Source: an uncultured archaeon
GTDB taxonomy: Archaea > Asgardarchaeota > Lokiarchaeia > Sigyniarchaeales > SOKP01
Direction of reading: 5' to 3'
NCBI GenBank assembly: GCA_964486045.1
Contig: CAZALK010000014.1
Span: 32,001-96,000, forward strand
DNA length: 64,000 bases
Shown here: positions 5,183-19,114 of the stretch, piece by piece
How positions within the stretch are numbered: position 1 is the stretch's first letter
How the letters are laid out: the number at the start of each line of letters is the position of its first letter
Made by a program: the position numbers and the translations under genes
Notes under the pieces: generated by a model
What the model saw: the letters and a program-made list of their open reading frames with translations, nothing else
Database searches by the model: none
What the model was told of the DNA's origin: nothing

Positions 5183-6874
5183 ATGGAAATGAATGAATTA
5201 GTCGAAAAGTTATTCGATCAGAAATGGAATTATAAAAATCGCAACAATATAATTAATAGATTACAAGAAAATTACTATGATATTATGGTAATAGGTGCGG
5301 GTATTACTGGGGCAGGAGTTGCTAGAGAAGCAGCATTACGAGGATTAAAAGTTGCTTGTGTGGATATGCAAGACTTTGCTGCTGGTACCTCTTCAAGAAG
5401 TTCAAAAATGGCACACGGGGGTTTAAGATATCTTACTTATGGTGAAATAGATTTAGTGAAAGATGCTACTCAAGAAAGAAATTGGATGCGAGTTCACATT
5501 CCACATTTAGTAAGACCACTTCCCTTTTTAATCCTATTTAAAAAGGAAGGAACATATAAAAAGCGCGTAATACAATCTGCAGTAAAGATTTATGATTTTT
5601 TGGGTGAAAATAATTCAGAATTTAAAAACTTTAAACCATTTAAAGAATACTCCCCTGAGGGAATTTCTGAAATAGAACCTACTTATTTAAATGAAGGAAT
5701 TTTAGGAGGTTATGTGTATTACGATACAAACATAGATGACGCACGACTAACAATTGAGATTTTAAAAGAAGCAATAGTTAGAGGAGCAGATATAGTAAAT
5801 TACTGCAAAGTTATAGACTATACTAATGAAAATGGAAAAGTAAATGGAGTTATTTGTAAAGATTTAGAAAAAGATTTTCAATTTGAAATTAAAGCAAAAT
5901 TAGTTGTTAATGCTACTGGTGTTTGGACAGATCAATTGTTAGTTAATTATCCTGATGATATTCCAAAACCTTTAATTAGACCTACTAAGGGTGTCCATAT
6001 TCAAATTAGACGAGAATGCATAAAAAATAACTTTGCTGTGGTTTTAAGCTCAGTTGATGATAACCGTATTTTTTTTGTCATCCCCCGTAATGAAGATTTT
6101 ACAATAATTGGTACAACTGATACGGATTACCAAGGTGATTTAGCTAATCCTTTCTGTAATAAAGATGATGCTGATTATCTAATTAAATCGACTAAACATT
6201 ATTTTCCAGATGCAAATCTAAGTTATGAAAACATACTTTCAACTTACGCTGGAATAAGACCCCTAGTAAGGCAAAAAGGAAAATTGGAGAGTGAAGTTTC
6301 AAGATCACATATTGTTTTTTTTTCTGATGATGGATTGTTAACAATTACAGGAGGAAAACTGACAGAATGGCGATCCATGGCTGAAAATTTGTTTGAAAAA
6401 ATTAATGAGAAAAAAATTTTAGGGGAGATAAAACGGGAGAAAAATTTTTCAAGAAAAAAATTTATCATTACTTTAGAAAAAGAAGAATGGTTAAATGAAT
6501 TAAAAAACTCAGGAGTTATGATACTTGAAAGCATTGCTGATCACTTATATCAACAATATGGAAAAGGAGCCATAAAGATTCTTGAAATTCTGCAAGAGGA
6601 TGAAACTTTAAAAGAAAAAATTATTGAAGAAAATAACTTCATTAAAGCAGAAATCATCTATTGTCTAAGAAACGAATTAACACCACATCTGATTGATGTT
6701 TTTTGTCGTCGAACTGAAATGTTTCTCTGGATAACTCCGAATTCCGTGCTTGAAGCTACAGAGAAAGTAGCTAAACTTATGGAAAAGGAATACTCCTGGA
6801 CTGAGGATAAAAAGAATCAGGAAATTGAAACTTATCTTGAATACAATAAAAAAACTCTTGAATTTCTACTCTAA
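5183..6874 (+). CDS. glpD: FAD-dependent glycerol-3-phosphate dehydrogenase/oxidase
   Basis: IGAGITGAG, GTSSRSSKMAHGGLRYL, DDARL, GTTD, AGIRPL, GGKLT. Confidence 0.93.
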   Translation: MEMNELVEKLFDQKWNYKNRNNIINRLQENYYDIMVIGAGITGAGVAREAALRGLKVACVDMQDFAAGTSSRSSKMAHGGLRYLTYGEIDLVKDATQERNWMRVHIPHLVRPLPFLILFKKEGTYKKRVIQSAVKIYDFLGENNSEFKNFKPFKEYSPEGISEIEPTYLNEGILGGYVYYDTNIDDARLTIEILKEAIVRGADIVNYCKVIDYTNENGKVNGVICKDLEKDFQFEIKAKLVVNATGVWTDQLLVNYPDDIPKPLIRPTKGVHIQIRRECIKNNFAVVLSSVDDNRIFFVIPRNEDFTIIGTTDTDYQGDLANPFCNKDDADYLIKSTKHYFPDANLSYENILSTYAGIRPLVRQKGKLESEVSRSHIVFFSDDGLLTITGGKLTEWRSMAENLFEKINEKKILGEIKREKNFSRKKFIITLEKEEWLNELKNSGVMILESIADHLYQQYGKGAIKILEILQEDETLKEKIIEENNFIKAEIIYCLRNELTPHLIDVFCRRTEMFLWITPNSVLEATEKVAKLMEKEYSWTEDKKNQEIETYLEYNKKTLEFLL

Positions 6875-9800
6875 ATTTTAACTGAAATTAAATAATTCAA
6901 AATTTCTCGAATTACACTATACTTAAAAGGAATATCTTTTATTTTTGATAACGATTGAATGCTAGCATGTTGATTAATACTAAGTTGATTTAAAATCTCT
7001 TTTATTAAAAAAATAAGATCTTTAAAATAAGATGTTAAAGCTTGATAGAAATTATGATCTTTTTTCTTGTCTAGAAGCCAATTCATTAGAAGAATATCAT
7101 TATTTCTGAAATATACTTTTAACTGGTTAATTATAAAAGAGTTTTTTACCTTCACAGAAAAATTAAAAAGTTTATCATACAAGACACCACATATAATATT
7201 TCTCAGTTTTCTTGGAAAAGAATTAATTTGATTAGTACCCTTGTAAAGAGTAATACTTGTGATTTTATTTCTCTCAAAAAAATTATTAGAACCAATCACT
7301 TTTTGTTCTCCCAAATATTGTATTATATACTTCTTTATTGTCTCCTTATCTGGAATAACATTATTACCAATATCTCTTAAATATTCTCTTATTCTAGATA
7401 GATTTCCTAACTTTTTATATAAATAAACATAAAATTTTGCTTTCTCACTTTCATAAGTAGTGTATCGATAAACTAAAGCTTCTGAAATTGCTCTATCAAT
7501 CATATTATCTGTGATCTTTTCTAGGAAAGGATATCCAAATAGATTTTTAATATCATTTCTTAAAAATTCAGTTTCACACCAAACCTTTAGCAGATCTGCA
7601 TTTTTTTTTGTGTACTTGAATATCATTTCATTATTTTTGTTCTTCCATATATTAATTTGATGTTCCATTAATTCCACTATATCTTTACCTAAACTTAGAT
7701 AGATCAATTGACATCCTAAAAAAATTCGTCTTTTTCGTTCAGTTATTTTTTGAGGCTTTATTTTATTAAAAAATTCCTTAATTTGAGACTTACTTGAAAT
7801 ATAAACTTGATATTCCGGATTTCCATTTTCCTTATTAGATTTTATGATATTTCCAGTCTTTATACCTAAAATTGAACACATTTGAATGAAATCTTTGCAA
7901 AGAGGTAGAGAACTATTCGAAAATGCTAAGTTTAGAGTATTTCTATTCTTGATAACAGAAATACTTCCATCAGTATCAAACAAACCTCTCAAAGAAGAAA
8001 TTAAAAAAACTTTGCCTTCAGATTTATCAAAATAAACCCAATCAGGAACGTCTACTTCATTTTTAACTTTATTTCCTGGAATTAATCCTTTCTTTTGAAT
8101 TGATTTTCCTAATTCATAAATTGCATAATGTACCGACTTTCTTTGTGAAATAAGTACAACAGATTTTGGAGAAAGCTTGTGATTGAAATATTCAACAAAA
8201 TTAGAATTTTTTTTGAATAATTTATCAATAATCTCGTGTTTAACATATTTAACATAATCAGGGTCATCAATAATATTGAGTGCAATAGTTGTACTACTTC
8301 CGTTTTTATCGAGATGTCCATCTCCGAGCATTATTGATATGAATTCTGCTGATATTTCGGTTCTTTCTATTGGTATATATTTATCTTGTCCAATATAAAC
8401 ATCATGAGGGATAAAGTCTTGGTTAAATATTTTTTTTAATGTATCTTCTCCAACTAAATTATTCAATTTAAAAAAATTCTCTTCTTTCATGCGACGACCT
8501 TTAGATATTTTGGAAAAATCTTGACCAATAATTTTATTAATTTCCTTGACTCTAATATTTCGATCTTTCAAGATTTCTCTAATCTTACTTAGTACTGAAG
8601 TCTTAACTTTAATCCATTTAGTAGGTAGAACATAAATTTTCTCACCATTGTTAAGAAATCTGTTCTTCTCTTCAGAATCTTTGTATTCTGCTAAATTAGA
8701 AACTATCTCATCTTGACTTATCAATTTTTGGTTTAAAATCTTTTTAGGTTCAATAATATCATATAATCCATTTTTCACATTAGTTTGTAAAACTTGATTA
8801 AAACTTTCTCCTATTAATGAATCAAGTTCTCCAATAGATAGCTTTTTTAATAATAATTTAAGTCTGGATTTATCTTCTTCATTATCTTGTTTTTTTTGAA
8901 TAATTTCAATAATTTTAGATTTCTCATTCATGGTTAATTCTGTAGTTTTATATAAATTCTCCCTTAAAATCTCCTTTAAATTTTGAATTGAAGAAATTTC
9001 TCCATTTAAAATTTGATGGATTGCCTTCTCTTTCTTGATAATTTCTAATTTTTGAGACAAACACTTGACAATCTTGTTTCCTTCCAAGATTAAACTTTGT
9101 TCCATCCAATTTCTACTATAATTTTCATAAATACCAAGAAATCTTTTTAAAATTTCAAATAGTTCAAAAAATCTCGGATCATATTTCTCAATACGTCCTT
9201 GTATGAGTTTTTCCTTATCGTCTTTCAAAATTTTTTTGTTAAATAGGATGGTTCTAATTTCACAATACGTTTTTATTACAGTTTCTAATTCCTCTTTAAC
9301 CTCTTTAGATATTTCCTTGTTCGAAACCTTATGAATAAGATTATTTAGTAAAAGTGCCCATTTTTCTCTTATTTGAAAGGACTTCTCTAGGAATTCTTCA
9401 AATTTTTCAGTATTCTCAGGTGATTTGTCTAGATTTTTTAATTGTTCTGTTCTTCTAGAAATATATGATAAAAACTCTCTGGTTTTTTTTGAAATGTAAA
9501 GATTAGCTACTCTTTTTCCAGATGTTCTAATTATTTCGTTATAATACCTGCGAAACCAATCAAAATTCATAAATAATGGTCTAGCAATATAACTTTTCTC
9601 AATTAATATGTGCTCAAATTTATTTACTTCTTCTTCAAACTCCTCTTCTGAAATTTCTTTAGTTTTTAATTTTTCAAGCAATTCTCTGAGAGTCACATAT
9701 TTCTCAAGGAATTTAATAAGTTTTTCCTTACCATCTTTTGGGAACTCTGATTTTTTAATGCTATTTGCTAAATATTGCGCCCATTCTTCATTAAATTCTC

Positions 9801-18200: not shown

Positions 18201-19114
18201 GGAAAAATTTGTAAGAACTGGCTCTTTGACATAAAATAATTGTCTTCTCCATGATCGATTTTAATAGATTGTTCACAAACAACTGATCTTATAGCGTTGA
18301 TTAAATCATTACCAGCAAGTAATGCAATTTTTGTATGATGAAAATTTACGCTAAAATTTGATTTTAGTTCCATAGAATAATCTTGAACTTGCCCCATCAG
18401 TTCCCGCAATCTAGTTCTAGTTAAAATACCTTTTACAACATGATAGACGCTAAAGTAAATAGAAATTCGATAAGAATTGTTGTTATTATAATTTTTAGTT
18501 TGGTGAGGATTTATATGGATGTCCTGCGCTTCAGGTGAGATTAAAGGAATATTAATAATTGGGTTTTGTACTACTTGGTATGTGTATGGAACCCGGGCTT
18601 GATACAATGCCTTGATAAACTGATTTAATGTAGGTTGTACATTTTCAGGAAGTACTTCAATTTTAAATATATGGGTACCTATTGTTATCACATCTTCTTT
18701 ATTCATAATTAATAAAGTGGCAGGGTCATCTTCTGCTATCCAGAATGTAAAGTTCTCAAAAGGGTTTATAACTTTGAAAGATTGAAATATTTTGTTGACT
18801 ATATCTCTAAAATGAAAATGTTTTAAATTAAAAGCCACTGTGAAAAAAACTAATAGAAATGCAGTAAGAATTAATGATGTAGTAATGCTAGTTGTAATGA
18901 TATAAAGCGATATTGAAAAGAATGTAAGAATTATAATTACAAAAACTATCTTTCGAATCCCTCGCTCGATATTGGTGTCTATATATGAAGGAATAACATC
19001 CCATATATCTAAATATTTTTTTTCAGATGATTTCTGCTCCTCTTCAAAAGACATATCTTTTTTATCTTGATCTTGAGATAAATTGCTTCTATCCCTATTT
19101 TTATACATAGTCAT
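15218..19114 (-). CDS. Membrane-anchored degenerate VirB4/HerA-like ATPase, 1298 codons, interrupted by in-frame TAG (17177-17179)
   Basis: The two ORFs are in frame: LLITNGAPY*REHAMMKVISELVKLKIPSIIFDYSG spans the Walker A position. TVIIDLS is present, Walker B is degenerate (MVLPNVD), and the N-terminal half has two TM hairpins. Confidence 0.65.

Follow-up and report, generated by a model that had tools for sequence, protein, structure and literature searches.

The window analysed here is a 64,000-nucleotide stretch of contig CAZALK010000014.1 from the Lokiarchaeia genome G000, in which about 12.5 kb of mobile DNA is inserted near the 3′ end of glpD, the gene for glycerol-3-phosphate dehydrogenase. 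The cassette carries three minus-strand genes, G1, G2 and G3, running from 19114 down to 6871, for which we predict a membrane-anchored but catalytically dead VirB4-like protein, a soluble VirB4-like ATPase with intact motifs and a giant acidic protein carrying a LAGLIDADG endonuclease, respectively. We propose, at about even odds, that the cassette is a homing element of the tail-replacing kind to which a reduced, type-IV-like motor for transfer is coupled. Homing of the G3 nuclease with tail replacement would account for the insertion site, for the tail, for the spread and for the missing immunity gene; on comparative sequence evidence it is in itself likely, cleavage being a prediction. That G2 and G1 drive transfer of G3 and/or cassette DNA between cells is an idea that we favour slightly. 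A preliminary description of the window had set the limits of the unit at 6871–19114, which is too narrow, since the cassette spans from the replacement glpD tail (6733–6874) to the displaced original tail (19228–19372). The three frames that it listed as co-oriented are all real, but G1 and G2 are not contiguous, an opposite-strand gene of 531 amino acids (aa) lying between them. In window coordinates, the features are:

5183–6732, plus strand: host glpD body, which runs as far as the switch at ...CTCTGGAT (motif RRTEMxLW-I); Pfam DAO/DAO_C and DNA alignment with empty alleles
6733–6874, plus strand: element-borne replacement 3′ end of glpD, with a 4-bp overlap with the G3 stop and W-I-x-H-K changed to W-I-T-P-N; from DNA identity among occupied hosts
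6871–11136, minus strand: G3, soluble giant of 1421 aa with acidic repeats, helical carrier, hinge and exchangeable nuclease module (aa ~804–1421)
7747–8364, minus strand: two-motif LAGLIDADG endonuclease domain of G3 (MLGDG at aa 936, FDTDG at aa 1053); Pfam PF14528
8797–8961, minus strand: G3 hinge (ENLYK...KSxIIxII...LxKLxxxxLxSLLGxxF), just before the point at which C-terminal modules are exchanged; alignment, 25 matches
10624–11048, minus strand: acidic tandem repeat of G3, 51-bp (17-aa) unit, 8.3 copies
11154–13184, minus strand: G2, soluble VirB4-like ATPase of 676 aa with a GTG start; Walker A/B and Arg finger intact, N-terminal region of alpha/beta type
13501–15096, plus strand: passenger in a variable slot, a NosD/beta-helix surface-type protein of 531 aa; Pfam
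15218–19114, minus strand: G1, membrane VirB4-like pseudo-ATPase with two units of transmembrane (TM) hairpin plus alpha/beta module, a dead ATPase and a C-terminal extension; broken
17177–17179, minus strand: TAG codon, in frame, within the degenerate P-loop of G1; the orthologue has TAT
19228–19372, plus strand: displaced earlier glpD 3′ end (GAT-TAGTCATAAAAG..., ISHKR...SFIK*), without a start but still open; tblastn 46% to the used tail, fits the empty-allele consensus
19481–20155, plus strand: flanking membrane gene of 224 aa, directly 3′ of glpD in empty genomes

The glpD site and the G3 nuclease

Among 30 loci of the genus, about 26 are empty, with glpD directly before the 224-aa gene, and G000 and two of its relatives, G013 and G019, are occupied at the same codon; G100 and G028 are among the empty ones. 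The three occupied hosts represent three separate clades on both flank trees. Their used tails share 86–91% DNA identity and reach at most 73% to any empty allele, and the W-I-x-H-K motif that empty alleles conserve is changed in the replacement tail. Between G019 and the empty G100, identity is 96–97% over both flanks and the displaced tail, and the sequence switches abruptly at TGGAT. The second glpD end, upstream of G1, comprises 48 codons, and a junction-spanning pattern was found at 13 empty loci but at none of the occupied ones. On these alignments, the cassette supplies a diverged replacement glpD tail and strands the old one. The inserts measure 12.5, ~2.7 and ~2.3 kb and their far junctions differ among the three hosts; with length and far junction both variable, the insertion is therefore unlike one made at a fixed att junction. 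G013 and G019 hold the nuclease module only, 89% and 71% identical to the window module, and in G013 it carries a short N-terminus of another kind. Between G000 and G013, the stranded tails match at 89% and the flanking genes at about 70%, a pattern that weakly suggests co-transfer of flanks.

As stated in the preliminary description, G3 lies 17 bp downstream of G2 and contains a nuclease, but not a terminal one: ~290 aa follow its two motifs. The first 200 aa are 40% D+E. Pfam LAGLIDADG_3 matches aa 1049–1126 (E 2.7e-13), both catalytic Asp residues are present, and both motifs are kept in nearly all of ~34 aligned homologues. An intein origin was considered for G3 and rejected, no Hint match being found; among the sister tips, those at nrdD and leuS do derive from inteins. 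An Atlas search with aa 340–810 gave no usable match. Carriers are common to several loci, and sequences switch after a conserved hinge near aa 726–780. The tips that follow are of LAGLIDADG, intein-LAGLIDADG, HNH, Zn-ribbon with PD-(D/E)XK and GIY-YIG types, some assigned by Pfam and several by motif inspection only; seven tips are assigned by motif inspection only or left without assignment. At L023:4436-9457 (L-numbers denote loci and C-numbers contigs), the tip of the giant consists of TFIIB cyclin repeats plus HTH, with no recognised nuclease. Tips at like targets are 73–90% (glpD–glpD), 74% (smc–smc) and 85% (nrdD–nrdD) identical, those at unlike targets about 35–45% or less, whereas carriers are 63–95% identical across different targets. 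By these values, tip identity goes with the target gene and carrier identity does not.

Homing would begin with cleavage of empty glpD alleles by the G3 nuclease at the RRTEMxLW-IxHK site, and repair from the occupied copy would install a variable length of the cassette. The occupied allele should be resistant, both of its junctions lacking the full site, and for this reason no immunity gene would be needed.

The VirB4-like pair G1 and G2

G1 has TM hairpins at aa 52–90 and 303–340, each followed by an alpha/beta module, and its Walker A and B positions are degenerate (ITNGAPY.RE and IMVLPNVD). To this extent the preliminary description was accurate, but the gene is not the open frame of 1298 codons given there: codon 646 is TAG. 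The same codon is TAT (Tyr) in P0001, a natural orthologue from the same locus with 97% identity, which stands in for the broken G1 in folding and in the Atlas search. G1 homologues, whose database names are mostly Promethearchaeota, are open at 1250–1300 aa, and the residue at the TAG position is variable within the family. Because the 97%-identical orthologue has TAT and no PylS scored above cut-off in G000, the TAG appears to be a nonsense mutation or an assembly error. Read-through, weighed against the same two points and the variable residue, was rejected as the default. Since G1 carries a stop, the window copy may be decaying or may depend on a paralogue, and an intact core G1 paralogue is present on C1 of G000. 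Compared with a sister strain (L081), the window copy shows 6 codon differences before the stop and 69 after it, and this unevenness suggests recombination within G1.

The AlphaFold2 (AF2) model of the N-terminal half of P0001 (pTM 0.86) aligns with the VirB4/TrwK N-terminal domain (Foldseek E 1e-10; Z 25.3, root-mean-square deviation 5.0, 330 residues aligned), the next match having Z 8.9. The model also lies near Atlas VirB4/VirB3 clusters, with a TM hairpin preceding each half, and the Atlas feature search placed the whole protein near DUF87/HerA clusters. A profile comparison of the G1 N-terminal half with G2 found no similarity. Since GxxxxGK[ST] occurs in 0/43 G1 copies, order-level relatives included, the Walker loss is ancient rather than a sign of decay; Walker B reads hhhP.hD. 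Fold and motifs together predict that G1 is a membrane-anchored, catalytically dead VirB4-like protein.

In G2, by contrast with G1, the motifs are intact: GLSGVGKS (Walker A), VIMIDE (Walker B) and FRSRG (Arg finger) are conserved, and there is no TM segment. Its AF2 model (pLDDT 83) finds TrwK/VirB4 as the best Foldseek match (E 1e-15), with 534 residues aligned to TrwK over 5–670. The ATPase domain reaches Z 25 to VirB4 4ag5 and Z 29 to DndH-C and is also close to HerA and TrwB; the nearest predicted structures are bacterial DUF87/TrwB-type proteins (TM-score about 0.73). The predicted fold is that of a soluble, intact VirB4-like ATPase, for which a VirB4 role and a coupling-protein role are both possible. 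These motifs and fold alignments to TrwK uphold three points of the preliminary description, namely an ATPase of 676 aa with intact Walker motifs, the VirB4/HerA assignment of both proteins and the pairing of a dead with an active ATPase (G1 is without Walker A in 43/43 copies). A complex prediction for the G1 N-terminal half and the G2 N-terminal domain scored 0.00, which gives no answer and is not used as evidence.

The distribution of the two genes differs. In a census of 135 genomes of the family, G1 is present in 100, mostly as a single copy, vs 54 for G2, which is patchy (0–8 copies each, many broken). At E 1e-25, G2 was found in one family only among 121 phylum-wide genomes, with weaker relatives in the sister family. 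The core G1 operon encodes an HhH-bearing membrane protein, two more membrane proteins (the three having 1, 3–4 and 2–3 TM segments) and a 119-aa protein, and G1 copies adjoining G2 group in a clade of their own (16 rows, SH 100, FastTree), apart from the core-operon copies. In G000 the family-wide operon occupies L061:8045-15848 (G000:C1:212045-219848), with an SFLED-ending HhH membrane protein, two membrane proteins, an intact pseudo-VirB4 and the 119-aa protein; in some relatives the last is fused to NYN/PIN-like domains, and in sister-family genomes G1 adjoins an HExxH peptidase and an SFLED-type protein. The core operon is a candidate domesticated DNA-transfer machine and, being family-wide, a candidate machine of this kind for Lokiarchaeia. 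At ~40 G2 loci, a giant with an acidic N-terminus follows G2 directly, and G1, a 250-aa HExxH membrane peptidase or both precede it. One G2 subgroup (L069:6013-9991, also L032, L033, L035 and L119) has a GIY-YIG protein upstream and lies beside the thermosome gene in several genomes. At L050-L053, a G2-related ATPase of 870–910 aa has a longer N-terminus and another conserved neighbourhood (genes of about 373, 520, 235 and 730 aa).

For homing, donor DNA must be present in a cell whose allele is empty, and the steady coupling to VirB4-like proteins would offer such a route. G2 would recognise the G3 carrier and dock on G1, or on the intact chromosomal paralogue with its membrane/HhH operon; once docked, it would move G3 and/or cassette DNA into a neighbouring cell, the pore possibly coming from the core G1 operon. 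One nuclease protein would thereby take over the jobs of both the relaxase and the integrase of an integrative and conjugative element (ICE). On a bolder reading, a conjugative gene drive in Asgard archaea, which we rate below even odds, the nuclease would open a conserved housekeeping gene, repair would install the cassette with a resistant tail, and retargeting would proceed by tip/tail swap.

Sister cassettes and rival explanations

The order G1–(peptidase)–G2–giant recurs at ~12 loci in one Lokiarchaeia family, with directly adjoining trios at L023, L024, L085, L087, L113 and others. The loci lie at different chromosomal sites, so the co-occurrence of the trio, for which the preliminary description had called for a neighbourhood survey, is not due to chance. 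Tail replacement is also seen at lpdA, where the whole G1–peptidase–G2–giant set lies inside the site, at a coaBC-like gene (named by inspection), at a 204-aa gene and at smc. Orphan nrdD and leuS tails are located on other contigs, and by sequence these two genes are probably further tail-replaced targets. A stranded tail was found in 7/18 cassettes with a convergent neighbour, vs ~1.3% of genome G000 inside such intervals, the latter being a crude estimate of background. The picture that emerges is one in which the nuclease module and tail pass between species in a target-gene-specific manner, and the N-terminal carrier, G2, G1 and the optional HExxH membrane peptidase are shuffled among sites. 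In the window, the slot between G1 and G2 measures 2 kb (13185–15217); because the 97%-identical sister strain holds a different beta-helix gene there, in opposite orientation, it is a cargo slot. No remnant of a peptidase gene was found within the window.

Several observations weigh against a homing element coupled to a transfer motor. G1 is broken in the window copy, most genomes with core G1 are without G2, and many G2–giant pairs have no nearby G1. Among the cassette ORFs (open reading frames), none was recognised as a VirB6-like channel, a pilin or a surface component. A few tips are without assignment or are not nucleases (TFIIB plus HTH at L023). No stranded tail was found in 11/18 convergent cases, for which the windows were often short, nor in co-oriented ones. 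The tail-replacing island on C23 has a tyrosine integrase, and other such islands have neither nuclease nor integrase. Finally, the nuclease module and tail also occur alone (in G013 and G019, and as standalone LAGLIDADG genes with stranded tails at L229, L230 and on C8 and C10), and homing therefore needs no G1 or G2.

Individual islands in G000 illustrate this range. At L165:5570-7057 (G000:C8:59070-60557), an intein-like LAGLIDADG gene and a family B polymerase-like gene are convergent, and the older 3′ end of the latter lies stranded at a distance of 6 kb. At L167:891-2063 (G000:C10:93391-94563), a weak LAGLIDADG gene separates a gene of 370 aa from the stranded 3′ end of that gene. L169 (G000:C23:49483-60119) combines tail replacement with the tyrosine integrase and an HExxH peptidase like the G2-linked one. 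At L163 and L164 (G000:C2:119-129 kb and C6:144-154 kb), tandem blocks of PIN toxin–antitoxin and PAS histidine-kinase genes stand between a gene and another copy of that gene's 3′ end, and no nuclease or integrase was recognised in either island.

The most credible alternative, although we think it improbable, is homing without export. The nuclease and tail would then form an autonomous gene resembling the fungal mORFs, with G2 serving as an intracellular DNA translocase for the fused nuclease (HerA-like end processing), or with G1, G2 and the carrier as captured passengers. Standalone modules with stranded tails, the different short N-terminus in G013 and the GIY-YIG proteins coupled to one G2 subgroup would all fit such an arrangement, as would a G2 ATPase domain equally close to VirB4, DndH-C and HerA; moreover, unrelated passengers do occur in cassettes. 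However, ~40 loci keep G2 directly before an in-frame carrier–nuclease fusion with a conserved hinge, the whole G2 chain, N-terminal domain included, aligns with TrwK, and a dedicated G1 clade and the membrane peptidase travel with G2.

Polymorphic toxin delivery, in which G1 and G2 would export G3 against neighbours and the C-terminal nucleases would act as toxins, we regard as quite unlikely. The layout is that of a polymorphic toxin (constant N-terminus, hinge, exchangeable C-terminal nucleases, orphan modules), and the G1 modules are weakly like ESX membrane components (6lar_G Z 8.9, 7b9f_E Z 8.1). Yet no cognate immunity gene is apparent: G3 and convergent glpD overlap at the G3 stop, the giants in 32 loci have no consistent gene downstream and in particular no consistent small co-oriented one, and after 18/32 the next gene is convergent and mostly housekeeping. 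The tips are also of homing type, some of them intein-derived, and matched to the insertion gene, and LAGLIDADG is not mentioned in the consulted part of a polymorphic-toxin survey (PMC3482391). Of the roles suggested in the preliminary description for a membrane translocase with nuclease cargo, self-mobilisation is thus favoured by the data, whereas toxin delivery is weakened by the absence of an immunity gene and the homing-type tips. The description did not connect the nuclease with the insertion site; the C-terminal module is of homing type, is inherited along with a replacement tail and matches its target gene.

Least likely of all is an island made by a tyrosine recombinase acting in trans on a circle whose attP bears the replacement tail, with the short versions as later deletions and the nuclease–target match as linkage: five tyrosine integrases in G000 (one inside a tail-replacing island), the sharp switch and a 3-bp GAT repeat at both ends of the window copy would suit it, but neither the cassette nor any sister cassette viewed contains a recognised integrase (PF00589 matches lie on other contigs only, PF00239 has none, and the four cassette ORFs are otherwise assigned), the far junctions are not the same in the three hosts, that of G019 lying within the G3 frame, and many different target genes are used.

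Relation to known systems

For the homing element coupled to a transfer motor that we propose, the closest parallel is fungal. The mORFs of fungal mitochondria (Allomyces atp6, Ophiostoma rps3) encode homing endonucleases in free-standing genes and supply a replacement end to the gene that they enter. Two-motif LAGLIDADG genes that are free-standing and self-mobile have been described (PMC8393795). The cassette shares with the mORF type an intronless two-motif LAGLIDADG gene, a conserved site near the 3′ end, use of the foreign tail, stranding of the native one and cross-species spread: the homing-type endonuclease motifs are intact outside any intron or intein, the foreign 3′ end is used, and empty and occupied alleles coexist with horizontal spread. 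It differs in that the nuclease tips an acidic carrier of 1100–2400 aa, varies by exchange among four superfamilies and shares an operon with VirB4-like ATPases, often joined by a membrane peptidase.

With ICEs and type IV secretion (VirB4 TrwK), the cassette shares the VirB4 fold in G1 and G2, insertion at a gene end with tail replacement, and cargo genes. A VirB4-family ATPase is present, but there is no integrase of its own; no relaxase, VirB6 or pilin was recognised in the cassette either, there are two VirB4-like proteins, and the membrane one is dead, with fused TM hairpins. The absence of relaxase, pilin and NurA noted in the preliminary description is borne out within the cassette, no relaxase, mating-pore or pilin gene being detected among its ORFs by Pfam/NCBIfam and no NurA in the neighbour survey; aa 340–810 of G3 are unmatched, and archaeal conjugation has no recognisable relaxases in any case (PMC9905601). 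Ced and Ted, domesticated archaeal DNA-transfer systems (PMC9905601), likewise have an archaeal VirB4-like membrane ATPase, and the core G1 paralogue resembles them in residing in a conserved chromosomal operon with membrane and HhH proteins. By contrast, the cassette is without a 6–7-TM CedA or a small 2-TM pilin ORF, G1 is a pseudo-ATPase, and the element is mobile and nuclease-tipped; an active membrane-anchored VirB4-like ATPase is lacking, the membrane G1 being dead in 43/43 copies and the active G2 being without TM.

Polymorphic toxin systems (PMC3482391) share the constant N-terminus, hinge, exchangeable C-terminal nucleases, orphan tips and membrane peptidase, but differ in that the cassette is without an immunity gene and its tips are homing-type and site-linked. 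The HerA–NurA and HerA defence systems do not match: G2 has no NurA/Mre11/Rad50 or Sir2/DUF4297 neighbour, its N-terminal region is alpha/beta and TrwK-aligned rather than a HAS-barrel, and PADLOC matches to G2 cover the ATPase domain only. Asgard Aloposons (PMC8813620) and the mobile genetic elements of Atabeyarchaeia (PMC11529989) also have Asgard hosts and giant genes in mobile DNA, but VirB4/HerA is absent from both main texts, and the Aloposon giants accompany a MinD/ParA-like ATPase (PMC8813620). As the preliminary description had supposed, then, no named system fits the trio, which falls outside ICEs, Ced/Ted, polymorphic toxins and HerA–NurA. Our literature search, incomplete in its coverage, found no description of the module or of homing tail replacement coupled to VirB4-like motors. 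We tentatively suggest, as a possibility that we rate below an even chance, that the cassettes represent a new class of transmissible element in archaea. Relaxase and integrase would both be replaced by a homing endonuclease that is secreted and exchangeable, and a dead membrane VirB4, serving as scaffold, would act with an active VirB4 to bring the giant, together with cassette DNA, into a neighbouring cell.

The cassettes link a VirB4-type motor to site-matched homing nucleases, which bears on how Asgard archaea exchange DNA; if the proposal is true, they would provide a route by which DNA spreads between cells without the usual integrase or relaxase. They also amount to dozens of natural nuclease–target pairs from four superfamilies, with a predictable 30-bp site for each tip.

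Some minor observations concern the assembly. Contigs of G000 end inside G3-type acidic repeats (C41 end and C20 start; C28 end and C31 start), and the pairs C41/C20 and C28/C31 probably join; C1 may be mis-joined near 707–708 kb at a repeated peptidase–G2 block. The stranded smc tail is located on C28. Elsewhere in the window, at 2011–3345, an acyl-CoA dehydrogenase-like gene is present as two ORFs (215 and 202 aa) and measures 444 aa in G013, possibly reflecting another break or assembly error.

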